A stretch of 64,000 bases of DNA from IMG/VR virus record IMGVR_UViG_3300043021_000113. One strand, given 5' to 3'. The notes under the pieces are model-generated. The model had not been told where the DNA came from. It made no database searches and was given only the letters and a program-made list of their open reading frames with translations. Each line of letters starts with the position of its first letter. Position 1 is the first letter of the stretch. Shown in pieces: positions 8,265 through 50,555 of the stretch. This stretch comes from a virus (Duplodnaviria; Caudoviricetes). The position numbers were made by a program, and so were the translations under genes.

Positions 8265-8420
8265 TTCTCACTAATAGACTTGTAAATTTGTATTATCTAA
8301 AAATTTTTGTTTATATAGTTAAATAGATAATCCAAACTCTTTTCTAAATGATCCAATTTTACCAAAGCATTCTTGCAATTTTTTTTAAAACTGCAAGAAT
8401 CTTTAGTTTTAGCATTGAAT

Positions 8421-8942
8421 TCATGTGAGCCCTTCAATTTCTCCATTTACCTTTTCTTTTAACTTTTCCTTACGTACTAAGCCTTTAAGCTTACATGTGT
8501 AACTTTCGTCTTCCGCATAGCCGATTTTATCTAACCATGCGTAGTAATCACCTTTTGTATATCTATATTGAACCGTGTTTTCATATGCTTTTACACTTTC
8601 TGTCCAATGTTCGAACTTAAAATAAGTCTTTTTCTTTGAGTTATAAAGTCCAAAAAGATTGTTGTTTTTTGTACATTGCTCAGATTTAAACCATCCTGTT
8701 TCTAAAATAGCTTGAGCAATCACTATTTCAGGGTATTTGATCTCATAATGTTTTACAACAAAAATTAAATTTTCTAAATTTAATTCTAGGTTTTCAATTG
8801 AATTTACATTTGTAGGAATTACTAATTCTTGTTCGTGCACATTACTTGTTACACCCATTGCTTCTACTACAAGAAGAAAAGCTGAAATACAAATCAATCT
8901 GTTATACTGTCGTTTCTTTGATGTAAGCATTCGTTTCGCCAT
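8421..8942 (-). CDS. glucosaminidase (GH73/FlgJ-like) cell-wall hydrolase
   Basis: AQAILETGW, NNLFG, GYAED; N-terminal TM segment; start moved from 9053. Confidence 0.85.
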   Translation of the reverse strand: MAKRMLTSKKRQYNRLICISAFLLVVEAMGVTSNVHEQELVIPTNVNSIENLELNLENLIFVVKHYEIKYPEIVIAQAILETGWFKSEQCTKNNNLFGLYNSKKKTYFKFEHWTESVKAYENTVQYRYTKGDYYAWLDKIGYAEDESYTCKLKGLVRKEKLKEKVNGEIEGLT

Positions 8943-19469: not shown

Positions 19470-19868
19470 TTAAACAGCTTTAAATACTAAATAACCATTA
19501 GATTTTAAAAGTTTAATCGCTTTTTCAATTTCAACCTTTCTCTGAGCGTTCCAATCAGCCGTTTCATCATCTATAACGATAACTTCTGGCTTCTCTTCTT
19601 TAGGTCTATTTCTAGCGTAAATCTCTTTCGATATATTATACGCTGTTTTATACATGAATTCAACCTTACCCATATAAAGAGGTTCTGTTTGAGTAACAAA
19701 ATAACTTCTGTCCTCACTGTCTTCTTTTACAAAGCCAGATTCTTTAATGGCTCTATAAAAATAAGTATTCGAATAAATTTTCGAAATCTCAGTCTTAAAC
19801 TCACTTTTAAGAAATTTCTTCCCTCGTAGCTTATTAAGCTGAGTTGTCATTTTTTCTATGTTTACCAT
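19470..19868 (-). CDS. hypothetical protein
   Basis: C-terminal AIKLLKSNGYLVFK motif. Confidence 0.75.
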   Translation of the reverse strand: MVNIEKMTTQLNKLRGKKFLKSEFKTEISKIYSNTYFYRAIKESGFVKEDSEDRSYFVTQTEPLYMGKVEFMYKTAYNISKEIYARNRPKEEKPEVIVIDDETADWNAQRKVEIEKAIKLLKSNGYLVFKAV

Positions 19869-19914
19869 AATAAAAATGGCAGTTCACCTATACACTGCCA
19901 GGTTTTAAAAATGT

Positions 19915-21513
19915 TTATGATTCTATATTTATAATTTCATCATTAAGTTTACAATTGATAATTTTTATGTCTTTTGAACTAGAAGCACCAGGTATAAATG
20001 TATAATATACATTTTCTCCAACAACTGTAAAACATTTTATCATTTCACAATTTACAAATTCACTTCCAGGATTTGCTGTATGAACAAAACCTCCTATATC
20101 ATTACTACTACTCATGCTACTTTTAAGTCCCATGCTTTTATCAAATGATATATTATAACATTTTGTATTAGCACCTAAATATCCAGCAAAAAATCCCACA
20201 TATCGCTGAGCTGTTATTTTAGAAGAACTACTCTTTGGACTTATTGTTATATTAGAATAACTACAATTATTACCTCCATATCCAATTACACTACCAAAAT
20301 AATGACCATAAGTAGAATATAACTTAAGATCTCCATTAATATTTATATTATTAATTGTAGTATTATTATCTACATATCCAGCAACTATTCCAACATAATA
20401 ATCAACTTCACCTTTTGTAAGATCCAAACTAACATTAGAAAATGTAATATTACTAATTACTCCATTATTAACATTTCCAAAAAAACCCATATAGTTTTTT
20501 ATTCCCATATAGTTTGTTGCTTTAAGATTGTTAATAGTATATTTTTGACCATCAAAAGTTCCTTCAAATGGATTATCTACATTACCAATTGGTGTCCAAA
20601 TTCCTAATTCAATATCAGCTATTAATTTAATAACTTTTCCTTTATAACTATTCCCATTATTTACTTCATCACGAAAAGCTTTTAATTCTTCTAAATTTGA
20701 AATTTCAAGATCAGCTTTTGCTTCAATATCACTGGTAAGCTTGTTCCATTCTTTAGAAAGAATAATATTAAATGTTGGATTTGTTCCGCTAAAATCATCA
20801 ACCCATATTTCAGTAGTTGTGTTTGGAAGAACTTTTACAGTTTTAACAAATACTTTATTATTAGCAGTAACTTTTACTGTTGCACTTGTTATTGATGAAT
20901 CAATAAAACCAAATGCTTCAGCAACTATACTTGATCCTGGAGTATATGTTTTTTTAATATATAATGGATTTTCTTTATCAATAACAACTTTTCCAGTTGA
21001 AACATCAAATTTTGTTCCTAAACCTTCAATTTCAATTTCTGCTGATTCTGCAACTTTATCAACACCTTGTGATAAAACTTGAATTTTAGCATAAGGTCTT
21101 GTTAAAGGAACATCAACAGGAGCCATTATTTCTGAAACACTAATTGGTGTTGATGCATAAAAAGAATCTTCATTGTCTAAATCTGTAGTATATGTTCCAT
21201 CAAATTTTGATTTATCACCACCACCAGATAACCAAAAATTAAAAGTGTAATCTTGACCAATTACTACTGTTTCATTTATTGTAGCACTATTACCTGAAAC
21301 TGTAGCATCTTTTACTTCTTTTGTTTCTTGATTAAAACAATAAAACAACTTGCTTGTATCATTTGCTTTAGTTCCTAAATGGCTAGCATCAAAAGATACA
21401 TTAAAACTGACTGTTCTTGTTTCTCCAGTTTCTATTACCTCTTCACTATCTTTAGCACATGAAAACATGGCTAAAGAAGCCATGCTCATTGCTATTAAAT
21501 TTTTAAGTTTCAT
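19915..21513 (-). CDS. Bacteroidota-type surface lipoprotein (fimbrillin-like N domain plus beta-helix-like C domain), paralog 3
   Basis: Lipobox MFSC then AKDSEE; L.RPYAKI; W.PIGN...FDGQ.YTI.NL. Confidence 0.75.
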   Translation of the reverse strand: MKLKNLIAMSMASLAMFSCAKDSEEVIETGETRTVSFNVSFDASHLGTKANDTSKLFYCFNQETKEVKDATVSGNSATINETVVIGQDYTFNFWLSGGGDKSKFDGTYTTDLDNEDSFYASTPISVSEIMAPVDVPLTRPYAKIQVLSQGVDKVAESAEIEIEGLGTKFDVSTGKVVIDKENPLYIKKTYTPGSSIVAEAFGFIDSSITSATVKVTANNKVFVKTVKVLPNTTTEIWVDDFSGTNPTFNIILSKEWNKLTSDIEAKADLEISNLEELKAFRDEVNNGNSYKGKVIKLIADIELGIWTPIGNVDNPFEGTFDGQKYTINNLKATNYMGIKNYMGFFGNVNNGVISNITFSNVSLDLTKGEVDYYVGIVAGYVDNNTTINNININGDLKLYSTYGHYFGSVIGYGGNNCSYSNITISPKSSSSKITAQRYVGFFAGYLGANTKCYNISFDKSMGLKSSMSSSNDIGGFVHTANPGSEFVNCEMIKCFTVVGENVYYTFIPGASSSKDIKIINCKLNDEIINIES

Positions 21514-21529
21514 AATTTAAAAGATTAAT

Positions 21530-23122
21530 TTATTCAATAATAACATTTCCACTACCATTATAAAATGTCCCAATATCATTAATTGTTACCGGATTATTAT
21601 TAATTTTACAATTAGTAATAGTTGTAGTTGTATTTCCCCATTTTTCTATTCTACCAGAAAAAGAACCAACTTCTCTTGTATTATTATTTGAATTTATTTT
21701 AATATTGTTTAATTCACAATTAGAAAATACACCATTAGCTATACCACATGTTAAACCACCAATACGTCCATTTATACTTTCTAATTGAATATTATTAATA
21801 CTTACACTATTACAAATTATATCAGTATTTAAATATCCAGCAAAACCGCCAACAGCATCATCGGTAACTTTTATTAAAGAGTTATCATTGGCTTCTAATT
21901 TTATATTCATATATTCAGAATTTCCAGTTTCACTTCCAATAATTCCACCAGCATATCTATTAGCAGTAATATTAATTAAACCTTTAACAGTTATATTTTG
22001 ATATTTATTTTCTCTAGATTCAGCAGAAACAACAGAAACAATTTGATTTCCTATTATAGTTGCATTTTCAAATGTAACATTTTTAATTTCTCCTGAAGAA
22101 ACATAACCAAAAAATCCAACACAACTTTCATTTTCTTTATTAATATTTAAATTTTTAATAGTGTAATTTTGACCATCAAATATTCCAGAAAATGGATTAT
22201 GATTAGAATAATTACCAATTGGCTCCCAATTTTCATCTGTTAAATCGATATTAGATGTTAATTTGATAGTTTTTCCAGAATAACTTTCACCAGAATTTAC
22301 GGCATCTCTAAAAGCTTTTAATTCACTTAAATTTGAAATTTCAAGATCTGTTGATTCATAATAAATAGTGTCCCATTCTTTAGAATAACTAATAGTAATT
22401 ATTGGACTTATAGAATCAAAATTATTAACAGTTAAAACAGTATTTGTATTTTCAATAACATCAACTATTTTTGTAATAGTTTTATTATTAATAGTTACTC
22501 TTACAACTGCATTTTTTACTGTCTCATCAACAAAACCAAAAGCTTCAGCAATGAAATTTTCTTTAGGTGTACAATCTTTTGTTATTGTTCCAGTTGCTTT
22601 AACTTTTCCTGTTGTAATATCAAAAGCAACACCCAATCTTTCAATCTCAATTTTTGCTGATTCTGCAACAGTGAGACCATCTTTTGATAAGACTTGAATT
22701 TTAGCATAAGGTCTTTTTAAAATAATTTTTTTATCAGTTGATTTAGTAACAGTGAATGTTTCTGATGCATAAAATGAATCTTCATGATTTAAATCAGTAA
22801 CAAAAGTTTCATGAAATGCATCTTTATTTCCATTACCTGATAACCAAAAATTAAAAGTATAATCTTGACCTATCGTTACGCTTTCACTTATTAAAATATT
22901 ATCTCCTGAAACATCTTTTGATTTTACACCACTACCAAATGAATAAAACAATTTAGCTGTTCCATCTGTTTTAGTTTTTATTTGGTTTGAATCAAAAGAC
23001 AAATTAAAACTAACTACTGCTTCTTCTCCATTTTCAACTTCATTTACTACTTCCTCATTTTTACTACATGAAGTTATAGTCAAAGCTGCTAATCCAGTGA
23101 TTATTAAATTTTTAAAATTCAT
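21530..23122 (-). CDS. surface lipoprotein, paralog 2
   Basis: Lipobox ITSC then SKNEE; same motifs. Confidence 0.75.
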   Translation of the reverse strand: MNFKNLIITGLAALTITSCSKNEEVVNEVENGEEAVVSFNLSFDSNQIKTKTDGTAKLFYSFGSGVKSKDVSGDNILISESVTIGQDYTFNFWLSGNGNKDAFHETFVTDLNHEDSFYASETFTVTKSTDKKIILKRPYAKIQVLSKDGLTVAESAKIEIERLGVAFDITTGKVKATGTITKDCTPKENFIAEAFGFVDETVKNAVVRVTINNKTITKIVDVIENTNTVLTVNNFDSISPIITISYSKEWDTIYYESTDLEISNLSELKAFRDAVNSGESYSGKTIKLTSNIDLTDENWEPIGNYSNHNPFSGIFDGQNYTIKNLNINKENESCVGFFGYVSSGEIKNVTFENATIIGNQIVSVVSAESRENKYQNITVKGLINITANRYAGGIIGSETGNSEYMNIKLEANDNSLIKVTDDAVGGFAGYLNTDIICNSVSINNIQLESINGRIGGLTCGIANGVFSNCELNNIKINSNNNTREVGSFSGRIEKWGNTTTTITNCKINNNPVTINDIGTFYNGSGNVIIE

Positions 23123-23138
23123 AATAGAAAATAAAATT

Positions 23139-23167
23139 AAACCTGGCAGTGTTTAGCTGCCAGGTTT
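23139..23167. terminator. perfect hairpin between lipoprotein genes
   Basis: AAACCTGGCAG-N7-CTGCCAGGTTT. Confidence 0.55.
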
Positions 23168-23178
23168 GGGTTAATTTA

Positions 23179-24891
23179 TTAGTTGTTATTAATGATAAGT
23201 TGACCAAGACCTATGTTTTTGTCTTCATTTACTGTTTCATAAGCAGCACCAAGATCATTTATTTCTACTGGTTTACCATCAATTGTACATCTAGTAAGAG
23301 TTACTTTGTAACCTGTTGCATTATGCCATGTACCAGAAAATGCTGCTACATCTGAATCTCCATCATAAGTACCATTTGTTTTTACTCTTTTAGCAGTTAC
23401 ATCAACAGTTTTACAGTCTACATAATTAGTGCCATAATGAGCAATACCAACAAATCCACCAATATTACGAGTTGAACCAACAACGTCCAAACCTTGAATT
23501 AAAATATTAGTCATTGTTAAACTATTACTTGAACTTTCACCCATGAATCCAGCGAAACCTCCTACATAAGTTCTATAATCTGTCGTACCATCAAAAGAAT
23601 TTGCATATACTTTAGAACCTGTTTCAGCGATTAGTTCAATATTTTCGCAATTTGCATAAACATTCTTACCAAATACACCTCCAACATAAGCGAAACCTTC
23701 TACGTTAATTGTACCTTTTACAGTTATATTTTCATATGTAGAAGTATAAGGACAACCAGCAACAACACCAACATTCAAACGACCTTTAACAGTTGCGTTA
23801 TTAAAGTTTAGGTTTTTAACTGATCCATTCTGAGTATAACCAAAGAAACCAGCATTACTTCTATCTGCAATTTCTACTTTATTTGTTAAATTAATATTTA
23901 AATTGCTAATAGTGAAACCTTGACCATCAAAGTTGCCTTCAAATTTGTTTGTAGCATTACCAATTGGTTCCCATACTTTATTTTCAAGATCAATATTAGT
24001 CATCAATCTTACAGTTCTACCTTTGTAGCTATCTACACCAGTATTTACTGCATTACGGAAAGCTTCAAGTTCAGCACGATCACGAATGCTCAATTCACCT
24101 TTTACTTCATCAGTTTTTGAACCTGCCCAATCTGCATAACTTACACTAATAGTTGGAGTTCCACCCATTCCATCGAAACTATCAACAGTTAAAGTGGTAA
24201 TCATGTTTTGCTGAACTGCAACTGTTTTCTTTAAAGTTGCACCTTTAAATGTAACTTCAACTTTTACTGAATCTTCATCTTTATTTGCAAAACCAATAAT
24301 AGAACCTAAACTTGTAGATTCTTTAAGGGTAGAATTTGCACTAAGTGGAGTTTCAGATTTTGTCATTTCTCCTGTTGTAACATTGAATTTATCACCTAAA
24401 CCATCAACTGTAATTGTTGAATTTCCCGTAAGCTTACTTGTTGATACAACAACAATTTTAGCATATGGTCTTACAAGTGTAGTTGATATAGTTTGACCCT
24501 GAGCTTTGAATTCTTCTGATCCATAGAATGAATCTTCATTTTTAAGATCAGAAATTATTTCACCATTTGTAAATGGATTTTCAATTCCAGCTCCTGAATG
24601 CCAAAAATTAAACTTATATGTATTGCCATTTGTTAATTCTTCAGAAATAAGAGTACTTGAAGCTGGTTTTTGTTCGTCATATGTAAAACCATTATTTTCA
24701 TTTTGTTCACCTATAACATACCAAAGCTTAGTTCCTCCAGCTTTTGTCATCATTTGGCTGTCATCAAGAGTTACATTAAAGTTAACCATTGATCTTCCAT
24801 CAGTAGTTCCGCAGAACTCTTCATTGTCATTTACACATGCGGTTAGTGCAAGGGCACCTAAGCCCATAATCGCAAAATTCTTTAGTTTCAT
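23179..24891 (-). CDS. surface lipoprotein, paralog 1
   Basis: Lipobox LTAC then VNDNEE; same motifs. Confidence 0.75.
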   Translation of the reverse strand: MKLKNFAIMGLGALALTACVNDNEEFCGTTDGRSMVNFNVTLDDSQMMTKAGGTKLWYVIGEQNENNGFTYDEQKPASSTLISEELTNGNTYKFNFWHSGAGIENPFTNGEIISDLKNEDSFYGSEEFKAQGQTISTTLVRPYAKIVVVSTSKLTGNSTITVDGLGDKFNVTTGEMTKSETPLSANSTLKESTSLGSIIGFANKDEDSVKVEVTFKGATLKKTVAVQQNMITTLTVDSFDGMGGTPTISVSYADWAGSKTDEVKGELSIRDRAELEAFRNAVNTGVDSYKGRTVRLMTNIDLENKVWEPIGNATNKFEGNFDGQGFTISNLNINLTNKVEIADRSNAGFFGYTQNGSVKNLNFNNATVKGRLNVGVVAGCPYTSTYENITVKGTINVEGFAYVGGVFGKNVYANCENIELIAETGSKVYANSFDGTTDYRTYVGGFAGFMGESSSNSLTMTNILIQGLDVVGSTRNIGGFVGIAHYGTNYVDCKTVDVTAKRVKTNGTYDGDSDVAAFSGTWHNATGYKVTLTRCTIDGKPVEINDLGAAYETVNEDKNIGLGQLIINNN

Positions 24892-24963
24892 AAAAAATTT
24901 AAAAATTTAAAAAAAATTAAAAAGTTAATAATTAAGTTAATTTAACCGTTATCCTATACACGG

Positions 24964-25326
24964 TCAAGGTTTAATATTTTTTAAAACATCTTGAATTATA
25001 GATGCTTTCTTTTTTGCTTTTTCAAACTCTAAAATCCAACTGTTAAGTTCGATTTCATCGCTTATTACTTCTCCAAATAAATTATGAACACAAACTCCGT
25101 CATCCTCAACTGTTATTGAAAAATCACCGTTTGGTTCTTCTATTTCACAATAAGAATTATTTTTATATTCAGAAAAGCTAGTTTTAAGTGCTAAAATAAA
25201 ACTATCAATTGATCGTCCTTTTACTACAACCCCATTTAAAAACCCACAAATAAGATATCTTATTTCCCAGTCATCTTTGGTTACGTATAATTCAGCACCA
25301 GCATTTAATTTGCCTATATAATGCAT
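24964..25326 (-). CDS. hypothetical protein
   Basis: ORF. Confidence 0.65.
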   Translation of the reverse strand: MHYIGKLNAGAELYVTKDDWEIRYLICGFLNGVVVKGRSIDSFILALKTSFSEYKNNSYCEIEEPNGDFSITVEDDGVCVHNLFGEVISDEIELNSWILEFEKAKKKASIIQDVLKNIKP

Positions 25327-25332
25327 TTTAAT

Positions 25333-25713
25333 TTATCTTTTCTTTATCTTAAGAATTTTTACATTCTTAGGGTTAAAAACTATTGTTATATTTTGCATTA
25401 ACTCTTGGTTATCATCAATCCCAACAAATCTTATACTATCGTAACCTTCTAGATATGCTCTGTTTATTTCTCCTGTAAAACTCAAGCCTTGCTTGTGCAA
25501 ATCTTCTTTGGTTCCTTTAATGATTTTTATTGTTTTATAAGATAATTCACAAGTTAATTGAAACTCCCTGTCAAGGATAGTGCCTTTTTTGGGTTTTTCG
25601 TTATCAGTAAAGAAAATTGCATTTTTAATGCCTTTCTTAAATTCTGAAAAATAATTATTAAAAGAGCCATTGAATTTCTCCAATGGCTCGTTTGAATAAT
25701 GAAAAACAACCAT
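25333..25713 (-). CDS. ADP-ribosyltransferase-like (ART-PolyVal-type) protein
   Basis: VFH.S, IFFT, GYDSI, IVFNP.NVKI pattern recalled for this family. Confidence 0.5.
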   Translation of the reverse strand: MVVFHYSNEPLEKFNGSFNNYFSEFKKGIKNAIFFTDNEKPKKGTILDREFQLTCELSYKTIKIIKGTKEDLHKQGLSFTGEINRAYLEGYDSIRFVGIDDNQELMQNITIVFNPKNVKILKIKKR

Positions 25714-25724
25714 TTTTTAATAGT

Positions 25725-25937
25725 CTATAAGCTGAAAACCTCTTCTCTAATTTTAACGATTTTATCTGTTGTTACTTCTAAAATCTTTTTAAAGACATTT
25801 GGTTTTATTTGTTGCACAATGTCTAATTTGTCATTATCTCTCATGTTCTCCTTACAAAATCTTATTGCTTCTGATTTATTAAGAAAAGAACCTAAGTGTG
25901 CATCCTCTGAATATATATTGTAAATTGATACTTGCAT
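25725..25937 (-). CDS. hypothetical protein
   Basis: ORF. Confidence 0.6.
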   Translation of the reverse strand: MQVSIYNIYSEDAHLGSFLNKSEAIRFCKENMRDNDKLDIVQQIKPNVFKKILEVTTDKIVKIREEVFSL

Positions 25938-26924
25938 ATTTAAAATTTGGTTTTGATTTTATGAATAATTATTGATATAATAAAAGCCGCTATGCTTATT
26001 CCTAGAACAAACATCGCAGCTAAAAGTATAATTGCCACTATTCTTTATTTTTATATTTAAAAATAATTAATATTATAGAGCTAATTATAAAAGCACAGAT
26101 AAAAGATCCTTCAGCACATAAAGCAATAAGTAGCCATATAATAAAGCCAAGGATAATTACAAAGACAAGAATTGTATTTATAATGTCCAGCATGTTTTAT
26201 AAAAGTATTTCAAAAATCAAAAAGAAAAATGAAACTATAATTAGCCAGCCAAAAATTACAAATCCAACTGATTTAAGAATAGGTTTTATCCAATCATCTT
26301 TACTCATAACTTATTATTTGCTAGTTTTACTACACCATGCCATAAATCCGGAAATCAACAATGCTGGAATTCCAATTATAGGACAAGCAAAAATAATCAT
26401 TATTAAAAGAATAATTCCTAAAATTTTCATTTTTAATGATCTTTAAAGTGTATTATAATATTATATAAAACTAATCCCAAAAATAAAACTCCACTTATGA
26501 TATATAAAATCGGGTTGACTATGTCGATATAAGCTATTATGCCAATTATTATTAATATAGACCAACCAAGAACAGAGAAAAATTCTTTCATTATTTACTC
26601 TTTAATTGATCCATAACATAACAAACAAGCAAAACTAAAACTCCTATACTTATAATTCCCCAGATCCAGGCACCTATAATGTAACCTAAATCACAATCCG
26701 CAAAATAAATTGCTAAGTAACTTGTACCAGCTAATAGTGCAATAATCTTTATTAAATTATCCATTACTATTTACACTTACTTTCAAGTGTGAAGTTTTAT
26801 ATGTTAATAAATTAAGTTATATTATTTTTTAAATAAAATTATTCCATCAGCAGTTAGTTTTAAAAACTAACTACTGACTTCCTCTTACTAATTAACAATA
26901 AGAAAAATTAGGAATAATTAAAGT

Positions 26925-27320
26925 TTAAAGGTTAATAGAACGTAATTGTTTGAGAATATAATTCGCGGTTTCTTTTGTTACTGAAGCATTAATAACAATT
27001 GCGCCATCTTTTATGCCATCAATTGATACTTTATTTTCTCCTTCAGTAACGTTAATTTCTGCTTTCATGCCATTTGATGCTTTAACTATTGCATTAGCAG
27101 AATTGCTCGTAGTTTTGAAATCTACAAGTTCAAAAGTTATTAATGTTTTATCGCCAACGTTAGCGTAAACTTTGGTTAAATTATCATTAGCTGTTAGTTC
27201 TATTGCATTAAAAGAACCTAAAGTTATTGTGTTATCTACTGGTTTATCAGCTGCAAATGCTTTAATACCAACAGTTATAACAACAAACGTAATAATAAGC
27301 CAAAATACAAACTTTCTCAT
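26925..27320 (-). CDS. secreted hypothetical protein
   Basis: Signal peptide ending KAFA. Confidence 0.7.
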   Translation of the reverse strand: MRKFVFWLIITFVVITVGIKAFAADKPVDNTITLGSFNAIELTANDNLTKVYANVGDKTLITFELVDFKTTSNSANAIVKASNGMKAEINVTEGENKVSIDGIKDGAIVINASVTKETANYILKQLRSINL

Positions 27321-27462
27321 AATTTTTTACACTTACTCTCAAGTGTGAAGTTTTAAATAATTAATATTTTATATTATTTTATTAAATAATAAATTATAGC
27401 GTAAAGTGATATTAGCAAATAAACTGTAAATAATGCTAATGTAACACTTTTTAAAAATCTTT

Positions 27463-27819
27463 TCATTGTTTTTTGTTTTGATAGACTATGCGTTTATTAT
27501 CTGGTGAGACAAAAATTACGCTTGAACTATCTTTGGCTATCTTAATATGTGATAAATTCTTATCTTTGATCACGTAATTTTTAAATTTTCCGTGATCATG
27601 CGTTGAGGTGTATTTATATTTCAAACATTCTCTTTTCTCGTTAAAATATAAAATTACTTTTTCTTTTTCATCAACCCAAAATTCGCTTGGTTCTGTATCA
27701 TAATAAATCGCATTGTTATTCTCATAAAAATTTATAAGATCAAAACGATTTACAAACTTAGTCTCTTGGGCATTAGCGCCCAAGAAAACTAAGCATAACA
27801 AATAAAAAATATGTTTCAT
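27463..27819 (-). CDS. secreted hypothetical protein
   Basis: Signal peptide ANA-Q (Bacteroidota Q-rule). Confidence 0.7.
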   Translation of the reverse strand: MKHIFYLLCLVFLGANAQETKFVNRFDLINFYENNNAIYYDTEPSEFWVDEKEKVILYFNEKRECLKYKYTSTHDHGKFKNYVIKDKNLSHIKIAKDSSSVIFVSPDNKRIVYQNKKQ

Positions 27820-28158
27820 TTACTGAAGCCTTATAAAATTAGAGCCGTTTTCTTGATGGATCTCCCAACCTTTATTTATCTTTTCAAAATAACATTTATT
27901 ATCTGAACATTTAAGTTGGACATAATATCTATTTTTATTTTTATTTATTATTTCAAACTCCATCGTTTTTGAAAGCCCTTTCTCTTTATCTCGCATTTCT
28001 AAAAAAATTGATTGATCTTTAATAATTATTGTTCCGTTAACTTTAAATATATTCTCTGTTTCGGATTCATAATATGTAGAAAAATCAAACTTTTTTTGAC
28101 TGCAACTTGAAAGTATAAATGAAAAACTAATTATAATTAAATAAATAAAATTTTTCAT
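27820..28158 (-). CDS. small lipoprotein
   Basis: MKNFIYLIIISFSFILSSC. Confidence 0.7.
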   Translation of the reverse strand: MKNFIYLIIISFSFILSSCSQKKFDFSTYYESETENIFKVNGTIIIKDQSIFLEMRDKEKGLSKTMEFEIINKNKNRYYVQLKCSDNKCYFEKINKGWEIHQENGSNFIRLQ

Positions 28159-28496
28159 TGTAGTTTTATATGATCATAACCATTTTCTTTATAAAGTTCC
28201 CAACCATTATTGGTTTTTTCAATATAACCTTTAAATATTATAGGTGCACTTTTAGAATGAATATAATATTTATCACCAGTTTTATTTATTATTCTAAATT
28301 CTTCACTAGAAAATTCATTGTTTTCATCTATTATTTCCATAAAAATTGAATAATCATCAATAATTAATTTTCCTTTAATATTACTTGATTTGTTATCACT
28401 AAAATCATATACTGAAGAAAATTTAATTTCTTTTTGATGATAGCTTGAAAGTATAAATACAAAACTAGCTATAATTAAATAAATAAAATTTTTCAT
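28155..28496 (-). CDS. paralog of 27820-28158 lacking the lipobox Cys
   Basis: MKNFIYLIIASFVFILSSY; start moved to 28496. Confidence 0.7.
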   Translation of the reverse strand: MKNFIYLIIASFVFILSSYHQKEIKFSSVYDFSDNKSSNIKGKLIIDDYSIFMEIIDENNEFSSEEFRIINKTGDKYYIHSKSAPIIFKGYIEKTNNGWELYKENGYDHIKLQ

Positions 28497-28498
28497 TG

Positions 28499-28846
28499 TT
28501 AAAGCCAAATTAATTTCTTTTTTATGTTCTTTTTGTATTTTTCCCATTCTTCGTTTAATTTTTCAGGACTTAAAAGATAATCGCTCATAATAACTGGTAA
28601 ATCTTTACAACCACCAAAAACTTTTTCGTTATTTTGATAAGCATCATATTTAGTATAAATATATAAACCGTAATCATAAACTTTATTATATATAAAAAAA
28701 CCACCTCCAAAAGCTACAAATTCTTTTTTATTTAAAAAATAACCTTTAGTTCCTGTTCTTAAATCATAAACATTTAATGGTATAGCATTAGCATAATGAT
28801 CAAAACCGTCTCTAAGTCTAAAATCTTCTCCTATTTTTATCATCAT
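28499..28846 (-). CDS. hypothetical protein, paralog of 29366-29671
   Basis: N(V/I)YD..T..KG..LNK..F ... FG..D(L/I)PV..SD. Confidence 0.7.
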   Translation of the reverse strand: MMIKIGEDFRLRDGFDHYANAIPLNVYDLRTGTKGYFLNKKEFVAFGGGFFIYNKVYDYGLYIYTKYDAYQNNEKVFGGCKDLPVIMSDYLLSPEKLNEEWEKYKKNIKKKLIWL

Positions 28847-28899
28847 TAATTACGCTTAACCTATACAGCATTAGGTTTTAAATTATTTTTATTTTATTT

Positions 28900-29331
28900 T
28901 TATAAACATTGAAACCTTATTGTTTTATCTCCGAATTCTTCTGGAATATATAACATCCATTTTTTATCAGAAAAAATCTTTCTAATGTAATATTTAAAAC
29001 CAGAATCTTTATTTTCTACAAAATATTTATATTCTTTGAATTCTTCATTTTCAATTGTTGTTTCAATATCTAATATTTTAAATTCTATGTAAAACTTAAC
29101 ATCAGTATTTTTATTAATAAAATTTAAAATTATTTCTTCTTTTGTTTCAATAACATTTCCGTTTAAATAGTTAAAGTCAGGAATTTTCCCACTATTTATT
29201 ACTTCTTGGCAATAATCAAGAGTTAATTTTGGTGTTGTTATTTCTCTATCTTTAAAATCCTTTGTTTTATTATTACAGCTTGAAAATATAACAATAAAAC
29301 TAGCTATAATTAAATATAGAATATTTCTCAT
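28900..29331 (-). CDS. small lipoprotein
   Basis: MRNILYLIIASFIVIFSSC. Confidence 0.7.
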   Translation of the reverse strand: MRNILYLIIASFIVIFSSCNNKTKDFKDREITTPKLTLDYCQEVINSGKIPDFNYLNGNVIETKEEIILNFINKNTDVKFYIEFKILDIETTIENEEFKEYKYFVENKDSGFKYYIRKIFSDKKWMLYIPEEFGDKTIRFQCL

Positions 29332-29365
29332 TTTTAATTGCATTTAACCTTTATAATGCTAGGTT

Positions 29366-29671
29366 TTAATTATTATTATTTATCCATTCTTTCTCCATTT
29401 CTTCAAGCTCTAAAACTTTATCGCTAACAAGAACTGGTATATCATTATTTCCAAAGAATTTCTTTGAATGTTCCCAATCATCAACTTTACAATATATGTG
29501 TTTATTGTAAAAATAACCGTCAGGATGTATGTTTGCTGTATTTTCACCATAAAACATCCATCTATGATCAATCATTATAAAATTATTTTTATTTAAATTT
29601 ATTCCTTTATCTTTTGTTTTAATGTCATAAATATTTACAGGATCAAATTTACTTATAATTTCATTTATCAC
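29366..29671 (-). CDS. hypothetical protein
   Basis: Paralog of 28499-28846. Confidence 0.7.
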   Translation of the reverse strand: MINEIISKFDPVNIYDIKTKDKGINLNKNNFIMIDHRWMFYGENTANIHPDGYFYNKHIYCKVDDWEHSKKFFGNNDIPVLVSDKVLELEEMEKEWINNNN

Positions 29672-29715
29672 TTTAAAATACGCTTAGCCTTTACAACGTT
29701 AGGTTTATATATTAT

Positions 29716-30357
29716 TTAATCAATATTCCAATAATCTATTTCTTCATTTAATATTGCTTCATCCCAAGATAATTCATATCCTGTAGAAGTATAATCATTT
29801 TCTCTTAAATATTTAAATTTACATTTAAGCGTAAATTCTTTAGATTTACTAACTAATTTTTTATATTCTTTTTCATCAAAAATAATATTATATATTTTAT
29901 TATCAGTTAAACACTGTACACAATAAAGATTATTTTCAATAGATTTATAATAAATTTGACGAGATTTTATTTTTATTTCTTCATTAGTTAAAGCATTAAA
30001 TATTTTTAAATAAGAAATATTAAAAGGAGACCAAGAAGAATATTTAAATATATTTGAAAATTTAAATTTTACTTCTGCTTCAAAATCTTTATAAGTTTCA
30101 TTCCATTTTTTTTCAATTTCTTTTATATTTAATTTATATTTAGAATATAAAATTGGAATTTCATTATATTTATTTTTATTATAATTATTTAAATATTCAA
30201 TTTTACAATAAAAAAAACCATTCCAACCAATATTTCCCCATTTTACTTCTTCATTATAAATTGTCCATTCATCATTTATTTTTTTAAAAGAATTTTTATT
30301 TAAAGAATCAAAATTTAATGAATGATAATAACAATTTACAAATTCATTATTATTCAT
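29716..30357 (-). CDS. hypothetical protein
   Basis: N-terminal half resembles the same family (LNKNSF..I...W..Y, YCK, IPIL.S). Confidence 0.65.
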   Translation of the reverse strand: MNNNEFVNCYYHSLNFDSLNKNSFKKINDEWTIYNEEVKWGNIGWNGFFYCKIEYLNNYNKNKYNEIPILYSKYKLNIKEIEKKWNETYKDFEAEVKFKFSNIFKYSSWSPFNISYLKIFNALTNEEIKIKSRQIYYKSIENNLYCVQCLTDNKIYNIIFDEKEYKKLVSKSKEFTLKCKFKYLRENDYTSTGYELSWDEAILNEEIDYWNID

Positions 30358-30411
30358 AACAACTCTGCGCTTAATCTACACAACGCCTAGACTTTAAATA
30401 AATTAATTAGT

Positions 30412-32320
30412 TCGGTTGAGGGAATTGAACCCTTCAATGGCAAACCTGCGCAACCGATAAATTGCTGACTTTCACAAGCAAGCAATCCCGCAATTACAAA
30501 TCATATTAATTCAAAATTATGAAAACCTTTGTAGCTCTCTAGGAATCGAACCTAGAACTACCCACCAGGAAGCTTGAAACCTAATTTCACAATTAAGTTT
30601 GCACTAAAACCAATAAAAATACTTAACTTCATGAAAACAAACAATACGTGTGACTTTCCGGGAATTGAACCCGGAATTACCCAAACCAGGAAGTCGCAGC
30701 TCTAACTTCACAGCCAAAACTGATAAAATCTAACTATTTAACTATTTACCATTTTAAAAAATTATCAAAATGAAAAAAATCACAGAAAATGTGCGGCTCT
30801 CTGAGAATTGAACTCAGAATTACCCAAAAAACCAGGAAGCCACAAACCCAGTTTCACAACTGAATTTGTAAATAAAAAATCACACAAAAAATATATAAAA
30901 AATATTATGTGAGGCTTGCTGGGAATCGAACCCAGGATCAATCTAACCGTAGACAAGCCGAGAATAAACCTAACTTCACAGTCCAGCTATTCTAAGTGAA
31001 AAAAACAAAAATTATGATATACAAATGTTGAGGCTTTCCAAGAATTGAACTTGGAATTATCCATACCAGGAAGCCAAATTTTAAAGACGCCGAATTTCAC
31101 AACCCAGCGTCTTTGTGTAGTGTGTCTAATTTTTAATGAACTATTGTTTTGTTATTATTAAAGTAAATGTACAAAGATGAAGTGGACTTCTAGGAATTGA
31201 ACCTAAAATTACCTAAACCAAGAGTCCATATTTAAAAGAGCCTAATTTCACAATCAAGCTCTTTTTCTTAGCATGTTTTACTAATTCTCTATATTATGAA
31301 CAAAGTACAATTCTATTCGTGGCCCGCTGGGAATTGAACCCAGCATTACCTAAACCAAGAGGCCTCAAGCCTAGCTTCACAGTCAAGCTTGTTGTAACAA
31401 CTTAAATTTTCAAAAAAACATGATTATATTATGAGTATGGCGGCCTTTTAGGAATCGAACCTAATTTTAATCCAATAAGGCCAATAAATCTCCAAATTTC
31501 ACAACTTAGAGATTCAAAAATTATTATCAACTAATTCAAAACTATTATTTATAAAAAGCGTGACTACAAATGTAGTGGTCTTTTAGGAATCGAACCTAAA
31601 TTACGCTAACCTGCAAGACCAACCCTTAATTTCACAATTAAAGGGTAACAATAAACTAAAAATAAATATATATGGAAAATCAAACTCTGTGGCTTTTAAG
31701 GACTCGAACCTTTATGCACGCCAAAACACATGTAAAGCCAGTTGTGTTTTTCATGGTTATCAAGTACGATATTATGTGAATATATGTGAATAATACTGCG
31801 ATATTATAAAAAGAACTGCCGAACTTCACAGCCCAGCAGTTCGCGCTTTAATCATATTAATTTAATATAAAAATACATTTCAAAAAGAAACTTTATGCGT
31901 GCGGCTTTCGAGGACTTGAACCTCAATGTATGCCTTTATACATAGAAAGCCAAATAATCTAATTTCACAATTAAATTATTTTTTACCCAACACTAAAAAA
32001 TTAACATGATATGAAAAACGTTGAGGCTTCTAAGGATTCGAACCTTAATAGCGCCTAACCGCGAAGCCCAAAATTCCTAATCTCACGATCGAGAATTTAA
32101 ATTTCAAATAACAAATCTTCAGGTTATGAAAAAATCATAAGTGCCTGCCTGGGAGTCGAACCCAGGAGTGGGATTTTGTAGACTTTAGTTGTGTATAATC
32201 AATTACTATTACCTGTTGAAACAAGTGATTTTAACTACATTTAATTTTAATTTTATTGTTAAAAGAAATTTATTGTTTATTTTAAAAAAATAAACAAACC
32301 CACTGTCTTCCTTGCCAGGC
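30412..32320 (-). ncRNA. array of 14 mini tRNA-like elements, 13 GUGA-tetraloop hairpins and 13 unique spacers
   Basis: tRNA-like units at 30412-30457, 30533-30574, 30652-30695, 30795-30841, 30913-30959, 31032-31075, 31183-31228, 31321-31364, 31442-31482, 31577-31620, 31690-31740, 31903-31951, 32025-32068 and 32143-32320. Each has a GUUCRAnUC T-loop and covarying stems. No ORF >=60 aa in the region. Confidence 0.9.
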
Positions 32321-32466
32321 TCTGAACCTTAACGCTTTAAGAGTTCAGTTGTTCAAAAGAACTGTAACGCTTTACATGAACCTTGAACTAATAAAAAAAA
32401 TTCGCCAAATTTTCCGTGATTACTCGAAGCACGGACTAAGTGATCATGAAAAAAAGGATCTGACCA

Positions 32467-35198
32467 TTAGTTGAGCCAGTATGGCTTATTACTAACAGCT
32501 AATATATCATGGTTTGCGAGTTTTAACTTTTCAGGATCTGTGTTAAATCTATAGCCAAGTATTTTACGATTCAACCTAAAATAACTTTCGGGACTTTCCT
32601 TAGTTATAACAGTGATCACATGTTGAAAAGTATTTTTATTGTCTACTTCTTCAAACTTGAATCCCTTATAAGCTCTAACTCTAACCGCTGGCTTTGTGAT
32701 ATATAAGCGTATTTTATAAATAAAACCTAGGTACACGCCGTTTACATCATATTTCCCGCGATTTGGGTCCTTGATATCTGAATACTTCATCTCACCCATT
32801 TTAAGGTTTCTGAACCTAAAAATCGGGTATACTCTAAGAGCTTTCCATTGTTAAGTTCAATTGAGATGATAAGCTTTTTTGTCTCATAATTTCTTATGCT
32901 TATATAATTAACATCGCATAAAATGCAAGATATTTCTTGATTTAATAATTCTTGTTTAAGACAAACTCGACCATCAGAAAGTATCTTAAAATAACAATTG
33001 TTAATTTCAAGTGTTTTGCTTTTTTTGGAAAGTTTACTAACGTTTATTGATTCCAAGTCTGGACATTTAGCCAGACTTGAAATTACACGTTCTTTCACTT
33101 CATCATTGCAAAACAAAATTTCTTCTCCTGATGTTGTTTTTATTATAAGTTTATATTGTTTCATTTATGAAAAATCACTATGAATAACAACTCCTTTGTT
33201 TTTTATTAGATGCAAACCATCTTTTATGACTATATGGTCAGCTGTACAGGATTTCCAGTATTCACCATACATTCCAGAAAGTTTGTATCTTATAAAACCA
33301 TTACTTACTACTTCTTGAAAATCGTCTTCATAAATAATTTCGTTAAAATCCAAATCTTCGTCTGAATGAACATTAACGGTTATTCCTTTAGGTGCTTTTT
33401 CAAGAAATTTTAAAAATTCTTCTTGATTGAATAAATAAAATCTATCTTTTAATCTAACTTCGTATCTCATTTTTTAAAAAGGCATATCGTCTAATTCTGG
33501 TTTCGTTGAGGTATCAAGCATTTTTTGTGCTTTTTTAATTTCAGTGAAAACTGATGATGCACCAGTCATAGTTGAAGAGTTATAATTAAAACTTAATAAT
33601 CCAGCTGGAAAACTAGCTTCTGCATAATATCCGCGGTCATGATAAGTTATCGTAAAAGTTGATAACGTGAACATCGGATAGCCTAAATAGCCAGTTATTA
33701 AGTTTTTATTATTATATGGGCCCCTATCTGTTTTTAGATGTAAACGACCATCTCCTGTTACTATGTAATGAGTACTGGTTATTAATACTTCGTTTTTATC
33801 TTTATAATTAACAGCACGGAGTTTGACATTTTTGTCGAACGCATCAAGTTCAGTGAAAAGATCCAGAGCATCTGCTAAGCTCTGAATCAATTCTATTTTA
33901 TCTTCATATTCTAATCTGTACATATATAACTATAAGTTGAGGTTCCAGAATTCTTGTTATGAGTTATTGTATGCTTTGTTTTATCTTTTAAAGTAAAATT
34001 AATGGTTACTTTGTCGTCTTCTTTTGTAAATATAAGATAAGTTGGAAAAACTCTAAGATCGCTTTTTATGCCGTCTTTATCTATATAATTATTTTTAAAA
34101 ACTACATGACCATTATTAAAAACACGGAATTTATCATCAGAAAATATTTTTGTTTGATCATTCGTCGAATCTACTTCTTGAACTCTAAAATCCCTTATGT
34201 CTTTATTATTAATTACTGCTGAATTAATAAATTTGTTTAATCCTTCGTTATTTACAAATATTGTTGTTTTATCAAATGTTATTCTATACATAGTTAAATA
34301 ATCATGGTTAACCTATACACCATAAGGTTTAGATGAATAATTTAATATAATTTAACAATTAATATGTCTTCAAAGCTATTTATAATCATTGCTTCGCCAT
34401 TTTTCTTTTTGAACATTGCTGCTCCTGATTCTGTAAATTTTACAAAATAAGCTAAAATGTCAAGATTATTTATTTTTATATAATAAAAAACGTTTGTATC
34501 TAGCTTTGTAAATTTGCAGTTTTTATCTATATAAAGAGAATTATTAGATAATGCGTTATGCATAAATCCTGGAGCTATTGGTTCAGCTTGACGAATGAAT
34601 TCTTGAATTTTAAAGTGTCGATACTCGCCAATAGATAAAGCAATTGTTACTGTATCATTAGCTATCTCTTTAATAACTCCAAACCAACCTTTAATTCGAA
34701 CGTAATTTCCGGTTTTTACTTCTAATTTCTCAAGAGCAAATGATCTGTGTTGATTAAATCCAGATTCATCAAATATCATTCCTAAGCATTTACAAGTTAA
34801 ATCTTGGTTTATTTGAACATCTAATGGATCGATTATTACTCTTGAATTATCAAGAGTTCTTCTAAGAATATATACTATCATAAATTAATTGATTTTTAAA
34901 ACTTGAGAGTATTTAGGATTTGAGCATTAAATGTTGGTGAGATTTTATTTATTCTTACATCACCAGATAATCTATCAACTTGGCCGTTTATAAGATGAAT
35001 GGAAATTAAAGTTATGCCGTCATTGAGCATTACTTCTACTTCATCTCCTCTGGAAATTACTTTAGTTTCTATATTAGTAACTCCTAAAGCAGCTTTAGTT
35101 AAATAGTCAATAGTGAAATTTTCACTTTTAACAATGCTTAATTGTTCCATGAAGCTTTCTTTTATACTTTGAAAGCTTGAAAATACTTTCTGTTTCAT
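32467..35198 (-). CDS. run of seven early hypothetical ORFs (32467-32799, 32787-33164, 33165-33470, 33474-33923, 33911-34291, 34342-34881, 34896-35198)
   Basis: Contiguous co-oriented ORFs; several start M(K/R)xY(K/E/R)(L/V/I) and may be remote paralogs. Confidence 0.7.
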
Positions 35199-35378
35199 AA
35201 TTTTTGTGTTTTATTCTTGGTTTTTCTTTTCAGCACATAAAATGGCAATTATAGCAACATAAACAATGGTTATAAATATAGCTAAAAATACTGGTGCATT
35301 TGTAACCATTAAAAGAATAAATACTGCTATAAAAGCAATTAAACTTGCGATTAATTTTAAAATAAAATTTACCATGAT

Positions 35379-35942
35379 TTAATAATTGTTACTGTAACAT
35401 TCACCCATTATCTCTTTTTTGCCAGATAAGACATCTGCTGTGTATATATTGGTATATTTACCAACATAATGGAAATCATGTAATGTGTGTACTGTGCCTT
35501 GAAGATTTAATGGATTAATTACTGTTTCATAAGCTCTCCTATCCCAAGGATTACTTGAAGAATTGTTTTTTAAAATAATTGTTATGTTCATAATTTTTAA
35601 TGCATTTTACCTTTACAATGCTAGGTTTGAATTAATAATCGCTGTTTCGTCTTAATTTTCAAAGACTCGTCAGAAGCTTTCTAAGCTTGACAGCGAGATT
35701 ATTTAATCATAATCTCGTGTATACATTTCACCATGGATTATGGCGTTTTGTTTGATATCTTCTGTTTGAACATCAACCCAAGCACCTTTCCATGGGAAAT
35801 CCCAAATAGTAGTTGTTTTTGAATTATTTTCTGGAGTAATTTTTATTTTGTATTTTCTGGTTCTTTTAAATGGTTCATAATGTCCAAAAATTCCTAAGAC
35901 TTCATAACCAGAAAGTAAAATTATAACGTCAAAATTTTTCAT
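35379..35942 (-). CDS. two related small ORFs (35379-35591, 35703-35942)
   Basis: Shared I.P.N...T..T..DF ... GE.Y...Y pattern. Confidence 0.65.
35639..35696 (-). ncRNA. type III hammerhead ribozyme
   Basis: UCGCUGUC^AAGCU-UAGAA-AGCUU CUGACGA GUCUU-loop-AAGAC GAAA CAGCGA: complete core, three stems, GUC site. Confidence 0.9.
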
Positions 35943-36248
35943 AAGTTGTTGATTTTCAATAAGTTACGTATAAAAAAGTCGGCACAGCGCCGCTGGCGCG
36001 AATTTTGGCCAAAATGCGTAAAACGTCAGAAACTGCAGATAGAACGCGTAGAAGTGGGTTGAGAGTAAAATTTTACTTTAATTGTTATTTAGAATCATTC
36101 TAAATAATTTTAACCAATCATGCGCCTTTCTATGTCCAATTCTTTTATCAATTCATCCAAAGTTTCGTTAAACTCGCAATTAAGCTCATATAAAACATTT
36201 GTTAAACTGCTTTGTACTTTAGCGTTACGCTTAAGCTTTTTTAACAAT

Positions 36249-47367: not shown

Positions 47368-47958
47368 ATGGATTTTTTCGTTTATAATTCAGGTGATGGT
47401 TCATTAGATATTAACGAGCCACAAATATTTTTAATAAAAGAATTTGAAGCTTTATTAGACACAGAGCGTAACAAATGCAAAGAAGATAAAACCGGAAAAC
47501 TAAAACTTAGAGCTAGAAAAGAACTTGCTTATATATGGTTAAAGATGGATCCAAAAAGTCCATATTCTCAGTTTACAGAGTTAGAAGCTCATAACACAGC
47601 TCTTGACGATTCGGGTTTAACTAAAAAACAATTTGACGACGAAGTATTCAGGGCTGCTTGTAGAAAATATCAAGAAATTTTAGATTCTGACAGAATCCTT
47701 AGAATGATTAAAGCTGCACGTGGTGTTATTGATAAACTAGAATATTATTTAACGGAAGAAGTCGATTTTTCTGAGAAAAATTTACAAACAGGAGCGCCAA
47801 TATATAAAGCCAAGGATGTTATAGCAGAAATTAAAAATCTTGGTGACGTTATAACAGGTTTGAAAGACCTTGAATTAATGTACAAGAAAGGACAAGAAGT
47901 ATTAAATAATGGTTCAAGAGGTGATGCAACCCCAGGACGAAGAGATTTAATGAAATAA
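47368..47958 (+). CDS. hypothetical protein upstream of TerL (terminase small subunit candidate)
   Basis: Position and helical content only. Confidence 0.5.
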   Translation: MDFFVYNSGDGSLDINEPQIFLIKEFEALLDTERNKCKEDKTGKLKLRARKELAYIWLKMDPKSPYSQFTELEAHNTALDDSGLTKKQFDDEVFRAACRKYQEILDSDRILRMIKAARGVIDKLEYYLTEEVDFSEKNLQTGAPIYKAKDVIAEIKNLGDVITGLKDLELMYKKGQEVLNNGSRGDATPGRRDLMK

Positions 47959-50292: not shown

Positions 50293-50555
50293 ATGAAATT
50301 GAAGATGAAATAAAACGCATGTTTGTTGAAGAACGATGCGTAGTTTTTAAAAAAGAACTTTCTGTAAAATATGATCCTAAAACTAGCACTTATGAGTTAA
50401 ATTTACACTTTAGAGGAAGAGAAAGACCTTGGAGTTTTATTTATCAAGGAACAAAAGAAGATTTCTTAAAATGTGTTAGAGATCAAATAAGAACAAGTCA
50501 ATTTGACAAAGTCGAGTATTGGGACGGATACAGAATAGAAAAACGAAACTTATGA
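50283..50555 (+). CDS. hypothetical protein
   Basis: ORF between terL and portal. Confidence 0.7.
   Translation: MDVNEIEDEIKRMFVEERCVVFKKELSVKYDPKTSTYELNLHFRGRERPWSFIYQGTKEDFLKCVRDQIRTSQFDKVEYWDGYRIEKRNL

Follow-up and report, generated by a model that had tools for sequence, protein, structure and literature searches.

Structured leaders at start sites are a known kind of element, and several described systems invite comparison with the one reported here. Translational operators, such as those of T4 RegA, gp43 and gp32, of thrS, and the MS2 coat-protein hairpin, are RNA sites at or upstream of a start codon that are read by a protein; the RegA sites are unstructured and control an early-gene regulon, while the structured operators are single-copy and autoregulatory. 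In preQ1-I riboswitches the Shine-Dalgarno site is covered through pairing of a hairpin loop with the 3' tail. The promoters of the T7-like virion RNA polymerase of coliphage N4 are template-strand hairpins with 3-nt loops in the genome end entering first. Exoribonuclease-resistant RNAs (xrRNAs) pair a loop with 3' sequence and ring the 5' end, and ToxI units stand in tandem before one toxin gene. In addition, the promoter-early stem-loop (PeSL) cassettes of the T4-type phages RB49 and phi1 (Arbiol et al., 2010, PMC2839356) are approximately 100 bp long and contain a strong sigma-70 promoter and a G/C-rich terminator stem of varying position. Here we describe a repeated motif of approximately 30 nt in the window, i.e., the whole 64,000-nt stretch of the IMG/VR virus record IMGVR_UViG_3300043021_000113 (Duplodnaviria; Caudoviricetes). 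The motif most simply represents a cis-acting RNA element that occupies the leaders of small genes in crAss-related phages of Bacteroidota; these genes are probably early, a status assigned from gene size and position.

The consensus reads UUAAAACCU-N-[stem]-GUAU-AGGU-(N)A-[stem']. The conserved flank UUAAAACCU is followed by one free base, a stem strand of 5-7 nt with a terminal U, the linker GUAU, the block AGGU, the linker (N)A and finally the complementary stem strand. The window is A/T-rich (approximately 29% G+C), and its genes lie on the minus strand from approximately 39 kb to 0 kb. The initial annotation had listed ten minus-strand copies of the motif, and all of them were found in place; eight have the main form and two are loop variants. 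The strict core ACCT-N4-8-GTAWAGGT occurs four times on the minus strand, while only 0.06 occurrences are expected by chance, and the eight copies of the main layout were gathered by looser structural searches and a covariance model. Altogether, pattern scans and the covariance model brought the family to at least 64 distinct copies; these come from 42 loci, show 31 stem pairings and precede 50 unrelated families of small open reading frames (ORFs). The exact-pattern scan of IMG/VR gave at least 116 stretches, approximately one third of which combine complementary stem strands with a suitably spaced ATG, and a covariance model built from 17 gap-free copies gave 68 matches in 100 sources. If only the conserved letters are used to define a copy, paired stem positions show a bimodal distribution (1-3 in chance matches, 5 in real copies), and two chance hits were removed before the 64 distinct copies were counted.

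The hairpin stem, S2, is the best supported part of the fold. The full compensation of S2 claimed in the initial annotation was borne out and now extends over the 31 stem types of the 64 copies. In alignment A3, which has 64 distinct rows, both partners vary in each of the five S2 pairs, and pairing is kept in 97% of the cells; the alignment was fitted to the S2 structure of the model, so that these pair counts lean towards S2. None of 500 shuffles attained the observed covariation values, and when the partner strand was moved by one to three columns, pairing fell to 12-44%. Among 330 pairs the sense strand has 22 G.U and only three A.C combinations (binomial p 1.6e-4), with the candidates chosen symmetrically. 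This excess of G.U indicates that S2 is selected on the sense strand, that is, as RNA or, less plausibly, as the non-template DNA strand. The nested folds of single copies range from -3 to -11 kcal/mol.

The second helix, S1, in which the AGG of the loop pairs with the CCU of the 5' flank, is of a different character. None of the 64 distinct alignment rows departs from ACCU or AGG, and in 59 of 66 copies GUAU follows ACCU at a distance of 6 nt, independently of stem length. Support for pairing comes from rare double changes. With AGAU fixed and its partner left free, complete anchored scans of IMG/VR gave 38 matches, three of which were real, and all three had AUCU in the flank (L323, L521 and L542); with AUCU fixed together with AGGU, none of six matches was real. 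Neither of the single-change forms, ACCU/AGAU and AUCU/AGGU, had a real member in these scans. Together with the window copy at 30392, the change from C-G to U-A on both sides is thus found in four copies belonging to at least three lineages. The window itself adds the combinations GUCU/AGAU, ACUU/AAGU and ACUU/GAGU, and in the copies at 26795 and 27351 the neighbouring pair is compensated. A loop-to-flank helix of 3 bp, at most 4 bp, is therefore supported, with the caveat that the covariation events are few and that the U-A pair never varies. Of the four pairs proposed for S1, covariation is confirmed for two, namely the C-G to U-A change and its neighbour in the ACUU copies, and the outer A-U pair is not supported. 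Since S1 hardly varies at all, the sequence itself appears to be read by something.

The copies are tied closely to protein starts. Measured from a 5-bp stem, the distance to the start codon is 8 nt in 23, 9 nt in 10 and 10 nt in 8 of 59 copies, and the downstream ORFs, of 34-316 aa, belong to the unrelated families counted above. Within the window, the stem ends 5-11 nt ahead of a start codon in nine copies and approximately 50 nt ahead in the copy at 24970, in line with the nine close and one remote copies noted originally. Seven copies lack a called ORF; these include two chance hits, one copy truncated by a contig end, and one copy each ahead of a 28-codon and a two-codon ORF. No tRNA or other RNA gene was found downstream of any copy. 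In the block from 35.7 to 19.9 kb, 10 of the 13 intergenic gaps of at least 40 nt hold a copy, while genes that overlap or abut their predecessor hold none. The observation that many copies lie just after an upstream stop codon applies within the window and does not extend to the family, where this distance varies from 4 to approximately 150 nt. Coupling to the upstream stop by readthrough, frameshift or reinitiation geometry was considered as well and rejected, the distance not being fixed.

Three findings argue for a role at the level of mRNA and translation: the stem pairs on the sense strand, copies are strictly associated with protein starts, and they are present only where initiation has to begin anew. 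The reading that we prefer, tentatively and a little short of calling it probable, is that the element acts as a translation-initiation module of portable gene cassettes, an effect which, like the identity of the reader, we infer, whereas the fold, its strand, its placement and its spread are established by sequence comparison. The transcript folds into the 5-7 bp hairpin S2, and the AGG of the loop (GUAU-AGGU-NA) pairs with the CCU of the 5' flank UUAAAACCU, giving a compact H-type pseudoknot. The fold ends 8-10 nt ahead of the start codon and leaves a short A/U-rich spacer and the AUG unpaired. According to the proposal, it would shield this open region from the sequence upstream of it. The fold would be read in a sequence-specific manner by a trans factor, which could be the 30S subunit or a protein, and fresh initiation at the first gene of a cassette or operon could in this way be allowed or tuned without Shine-Dalgarno pairing.

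Several observations weigh against this proposal. The near-invariance of S1 points to sequence-specific reading and leaves few covariation events, and its outermost A-U pair is not supported: the U of AGGU is replaced by C, G or A in six of the 64 rows, without compensation. Single hairpins are weak and no better than those of shuffled sequence. With linkers of 1-2, 4 and 2-3 nt and stems of 3-4 and 5-7 bp, the pseudoknot is sterically tight but still permissible by published rules, and S1 and S2 could be alternatives rather than coexisting helices. Some copies depart from the usual placement: the one at 24970 is separated from its AUG by approximately 50 nt, no AUG is close to L061, and the two-codon ORF is the one behind L032. 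The sharp lower bound of 8 nt with a tail of longer distances also fits mere clearance of the ribosome site. Finally, both copies in contig L081 lie 13-15 nt upstream of an ordinary Shine-Dalgarno site, and an all-against-all blastp comparison (E 1e-6), which is insensitive and covers the window and four IMG/VR genomes with two of the five sequences incomplete, yielded no protein common to all five motif-bearing sequences.

The position of the L081 copies bears in particular on the initial interpretation of the motif. Shine-Dalgarno-like sequences precede 3-13% of the genes in the motif-bearing genomes and approximately 40% in contigs L081 and L061. Since the L081 copies sit upstream of normal Shine-Dalgarno sites, the idea that the element substitutes for such a site is weakened, although it may still hold for Bacteroidota hosts, while the other part of the interpretation, a structured element of the sense strand, is upheld by S2 covariation, the G.U bias, the double changes in S1 and the tight placement. 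Bacteroidota ribosomes keep their own anti-Shine-Dalgarno tail tucked away. A more specific version of ribosome recognition, in which the pseudoknot would be a bacterial counterpart of internal ribosome entry, is in our view distinctly unlikely: the CCU:AGG helix would mimic the Shine-Dalgarno/anti-Shine-Dalgarno duplex and dock on the 30S platform, so that a helix held 8-10 nt from the AUG would recruit Bacteroidota ribosomes by its shape and not by pairing with 16S rRNA.

If the sequence of S1 and the loop is read by a protein, the effect might as well be negative. An RNA operator of a regulon, at which a phage RNA-binding repressor (RegA-like or coat-protein-like) binds the loop and flank and later shuts off the gene set, belongs to the same mechanism class as the initiation module with the opposite sign, and we consider it unlikely. 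A variable stem combined with an invariant loop and flank agrees with this explanation, as does the location from -9 to -38 relative to the AUG, a position in which the 30S subunit would be obstructed by a protein on the RNA. There are 3-10 copies per genome, confined to one gene block, and the rarity of the motif in host chromosomes fits a reader supplied by the phage. On the other hand, a common protein that could serve as the repressor did not emerge from the blastp comparison described above, with its low sensitivity and two incomplete sequences, and searches of candidate reader proteins against Pfam and PHROGs were uninformative. Phage-encoded bS21 is absent from five genomes, and sigma factors were found only in G002. 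As for a trans RNA directed against the loop, ACCUAUAC was found only as the copies' own complement and at two chance sites.

The neighbourhood of some copies suggests a different explanation. A full-length type III hammerhead ribozyme at 35639-35696 on the minus strand (RF00008, 47.8 bits with a gathering threshold of 48.5, E 5e-8) ends 12 nt upstream of copy 1 (35602-35626) and has a GUC cleavage site at its 5' edge. Copy 3 (30367-30392) begins approximately 25 nt past the last unit of a tRNA-like array, and copies in other phages follow tRNA genes or a RAGATH-1 hammerhead by 100-210 nt or are close to tmRNA genes. In addition, a conserved, single-stranded A/U tract precedes the fold. All this could be expected if the motif were a 5'-end module: the long early transcript would be cut just upstream, either at the A/U-rich UUAAAA or by the neighbouring ribozyme or tRNA-like element, and the pseudoknot would block decay that runs 5'-to-3' or depends on the 5' end, and so stabilise the processed message. 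The 8-nt lower bound would also be expected of a structure that must not hinder initiation. We regard this explanation as unlikely, to the same degree as the repressor operator. If the block were purely mechanical, S1 should be no less free to covary than S2, yet S1 is nearly invariant; moreover, the hairpins are weak, the hammerhead stays on the downstream product, whose 5' end is thus already structured, and no RNA gene is protected by any copy.

The array preceding copy 3 (30412-32320, minus strand) is a 1.9-kb ORF-free region with a dozen or more units. Each unit comprises a hairpin of 9-11 bp capped by a GUGA tetraloop and then a minihelix resembling an acceptor/T-arm without an anticodon arm. 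ARAGORN detected no tRNA in the array, Rfam gave only weak partial hits to tmRNA 3' ends, and complementarity between the array spacers and start regions in the window was at noise level only. Long ORF-free stretches with strong inverted repeats were also noted between tRNA genes or ribozymes and motif copies in two other loci (L085:7960-8150 and 8390-8500 on the minus strand, and L029:900-1090 on the plus strand). They have no Rfam match at the gathering threshold and may represent further undescribed RNAs.

The array and copy 3 are also involved in a natural deletion. Contigs of related phages from four freshwater runs join position 29706 to 30405, so that 700 bp, including copy 3 and a gene for a 213-aa protein, are absent and copy 4 (29680-29704) is placed directly behind the tRNA-like array; the breakpoints lie at the 5' edges of copies. 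Since the deletion ends at motif copies, the copies appear to bound a gene cassette, as PeSL elements do, the evidence being this single case in the contigs of the four runs. A search of metagenome contigs with the 213-aa protein for orthologous loci found no relative. No RNA data set was found for the region 26000-35999, and the four freshwater runs, which are DNA, gave contigs of relatives only.

Genes headed by a repeated element raise the question of transcription as well. The virion RNA polymerase of crAss-type phages requires a single-stranded template in vitro, and early promoters for it are not known; a study of phage phi14:2 saw no motif shared by the regions ahead of early transcripts, and observed transcription of denatured DNA by gp66 (bioRxiv 10.1101/2020.03.07.982082). 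The motif might thus be a DNA-level start signal for an injected crAss-type virion RNA polymerase, the folded sense strand holding the duplex open; alternatively, the conserved blocks would be promoter boxes with an embedded stem, similarly to PeSL, in which stems can overlap promoter boxes (PMC2839356). Relatedness of the phage to crAss-like phages (its terminase is approximately 25% identical to those of Crassvirales), the missing motif in phi14:2, the activity of gp66 on denatured DNA, the location of copies near contig ends in four of five genomes and their position at the head of gene cassettes are all compatible with such a signal. We nevertheless find it quite improbable, as the G.U pairs are on the sense strand and a template-strand hairpin would carry A.C mismatches, and as duplex DNA would extrude a hairpin of 5 bp with a 10-nt loop only at a very high energetic cost. 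Immediately upstream of copies 1 and 3 are RNA elements with which they are necessarily co-transcribed, and no copy stands ahead of a tRNA or other RNA gene. Model scores are at noise level (E > 0.1) in phi14:2 and crAss001, which have the virion polymerase, and also in MT835470 and MT835539, the two nearest GenBank relatives by terminase. PF00940 single-subunit RNA polymerase was not found in G001-G005, which is weak evidence because the control genomes could not respond.

Host-type transcription signals were not associated with the copies either. Sigma-70-like sites number 124, compared with 109 +/- 10 in shuffles, i.e., there is no enrichment, and they do not coincide with the copies; the scan is not designed for Bacteroidota promoters. 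Inspection by eye of the sequence upstream of the copies revealed no TTTG / TAnnTTTG pattern of the Bacteroidota type. An intrinsic terminator scan flagged none of the copies, which its loop limit of 3-8 nt excludes by construction; the sequence after the stem has approximately 35-40% T with no run, and thus lacks the U tract of intrinsic terminators.

With its length of approximately 30 nt, H-type fold and location abutting the start region, the motif might also be taken for a very small riboswitch, comparable in size to preQ1-I, whose pseudoknot would sense a metabolite or signal of the infected cell and adjust early-gene translation accordingly, and the linkers GUAU and NA are indeed almost invariant beyond the needs of pairing. 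Many copies per genome before unrelated genes without assigned function are unlike any known riboswitch regulon, there is no Rfam riboswitch match and no candidate ligand is in sight, which makes this explanation highly improbable. More generally, a search of Rfam 15, whose families include hammerhead, pistol, twister, hatchet, preQ1 and the RAGATH motifs, gave no match at gathering thresholds in the window, none on the copies at E up to 5 in the region 19800-36000 and none on the copies of 20 related loci. This agrees with the original remark that the motif was not recognised as a known family, and no description of it was found in the literature.

The carriers of the motif are dozens of phage contigs from gut, rumen and freshwater. 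Whole records, from 62 to 327 kb in size, have 3-6 copies each, which are clustered within a few kilobases; four of five records have this cluster close to a contig end. No near-identical phage record was found for the window, nor did its own contig have an exact match in IMG/VR. The window shares structural or replication genes with G001, G003 and G005, and fewer with the IMG/VR contig G004, with which it has in common only the terminase, a tail protein, a PD-(D/E)XK nuclease and HNH nucleases by blastp. In bacterial assemblies, all true copies are on contigs of Bacteroidales metagenome-assembled genomes (MAGs); five such genomes have at most one copy each, and 121 further Bacteroidales genomes scanned had no match. 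The motif is therefore a signal of the phages and not of their hosts. One complete copy is a spacer (L456:414-452) of a CRISPR array that lies beside cas1 and cas10 on a Porphyromonadaceae MAG contig, and its core of 26-28 nt is identical to the four copies on G004. This spacer links the G004 phage group to a putative Bacteroidales host, and could on its own target several phage sites simultaneously. The orientation suggested by the 3'-end motif of the repeat is a weak indication that the crRNA may be complementary to the sense RNA.

Compared with the described systems, the motif resembles PeSL most in its genomic habit. Both are short repeated stem-loop motifs that separate the start codons of small orphan early genes from the stop codon of the preceding gene, both have G.U-type stem pairs, and the copies of both flank insertions or deletions between related phages. 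The motif differs in its length of only approximately 30 nt and in its lack of host-type promoter boxes; moreover, its stem is weak, its conserved 10-nt loop pairs with the flank, and the start codon follows at a fixed distance. Similarly to preQ1-I, it has two interleaved short stems with conserved linkers within some 30-35 nt at a start region; its loop, however, pairs with the 5' flank and leaves the start region open, it is multi-copy, and neither its sequence nor a model search gives a match. A specific loop on a variable stem is the usual design of translational operators, but the motif is structured, unlike the RegA sites, and multi-copy, unlike the structured operators. With the N4 promoters it shares a conserved sequence on a variable stem of 5-7 bp, few copies and, presumably, a phage that injects its own polymerase, whereas its loop is 10-11 nt long, its wobble pairs mark the sense strand and its copies abut start codons. 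xrRNAs and ToxI are likewise compact pseudoknots (36-45 nt) that work by a precise fold, which blocks or binds a nuclease, and ToxI has an adjoining A-rich cleavage site; neither is tied to the start codons of many different genes. The family, its loop-to-5'-flank pseudoknot and its multi-copy use as a cassette header in Bacteroidota phages appear to be new.

It is poorly understood how start codons are chosen without Shine-Dalgarno sites in Bacteroidota and in the abundant crAss-type phages, and the expression of crAss-type early genes is an open question, for which the motif offers a compact, sequence-defined and multi-copy handle that is readily mutated and restored. If it drives or gates translation, it would be a portable expression signal for Bacteroidota and a marker of a co-regulated set of phage genes; if it marks transcription starts or processed ends instead, a different open point would be solved. 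In either case, the motif is ready for inclusion in RNA family libraries and would aid the placing of start codons and cassette boundaries in phage annotation.

The ten window copies, all on the minus strand, are numbered here from the highest coordinate downwards. The main-type copies with ACCU starts at 35626, 34328, 29704, 29364, 28876, 24970 and 19903 score 27-51 bits with model R1 (E 4e-9 to 9e-4). Copy 1 (35602-35626; ACCU-A-GCAUU-GUAA-AGGU-AA-AAUGC; 43.5 bits with R1) is 10 nt from the AUG at 35591, and copy 2 (34303-34328; ACCU-UAUGGU-GUAU-AGGU-UA-ACCAUG; 47.8 bits) is 11 nt from the AUG at 34291, which opens the first member of a tightly packed five-gene group. Copy 3 (30367-30392; GUCU-A-GGCGUU-GUGU-AGAU-UA-AGCGC) is divergent and unscored by R1; it has the same layout, its S1 change is compensated (U-A replaces C-G) and its stem ends 9 nt ahead of the AUG at 30357. 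Copies 4 (29680-29704; ACCU-A-ACGUU-GUAA-AGGC-UA-AGCGU; 42.3 bits) and 5 (29340-29364; ACCU-A-GCAUU-AUAA-AGGU-UA-AAUGC; 40.4 bits) are both 8 nt from their start codons, a GUG at 29671 and an AUG at 29331, respectively; for copy 5 the mechanical ORF call begins at an in-frame AUG within S2b. The best score of the window, 51.1 bits, belongs to copy 6 (28852-28876; ACCU-A-AUGCU-GUAU-AGGU-UA-AGCGU), which has one U.G pair and is followed by an AUG at 5 nt (28846) and a second one at 8 nt.

Copies 7 (27329-27351; ACUU-C-ACACU-UGA-GAGU-A-AGUGU; 15.4 bits) and 8 (26773-26795; ACUU-C-ACACU-UGA-AAGU-A-AGUGU; 13.9 bits) are the loop variants, each 8 nt from an AUG (27320 and 26764, respectively). They have the shorter linker UGA, and a nested 6-bp hairpin is an alternative fold for them. 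Their S2 (ACACU/AGUGU) is the same as in the canonical copies L010 and L029 of other phages, and because of this common stem they are read as variants of the same element; their description as plain hairpins was dropped after alignment with these two copies. Outside the window, the scans gave no convincing AAGU variant with a GUAU loop and no convincing UGA-loop variant.

Copy 9 (24943-24970; ACCU-UGACCGU-GUAU-AGGA-UA-ACGGUUA; 26.7 bits) contains the stop codon of the upstream ORF, and its AUG at 24891 is the one approximately 50 nt away. Copy 10 (19878-19903; ACCU-GGCAGU-GUAU-AGGU-GA-ACUGCC; 47 bits; fold of -10.8 kcal/mol) ends 9 nt ahead of the AUG at 19868. The ACCU and GGCAG strands of copy 10 recur, nested instead of interleaved, in a terminator-like hairpin at 23139-23167 on the minus strand (ACCUGGCAG-N7-CUGCCAGGU), which is followed by a U-rich tail.

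Other features of the window concern different gene classes. On the minus strand, TTTCAAGTTATGCATTA is found at approximately 37780 and 37180, in long gaps upstream of the genes at 37706-37245 and 37102-36437, and may be a promoter of another class of genes. On the plus strand, the genes for the terminase large subunit (47925-50289) and the portal protein (50507-52987) are each split into two ORFs, with gaps of approximately 180 and 225 nt, and the terminase pieces are in different frames, which suggests possible introns or inserted elements. In the relative G003 the same terminase and portal genes are broken by single in-frame stops, suggesting that stop codons may be recoded in that phage.

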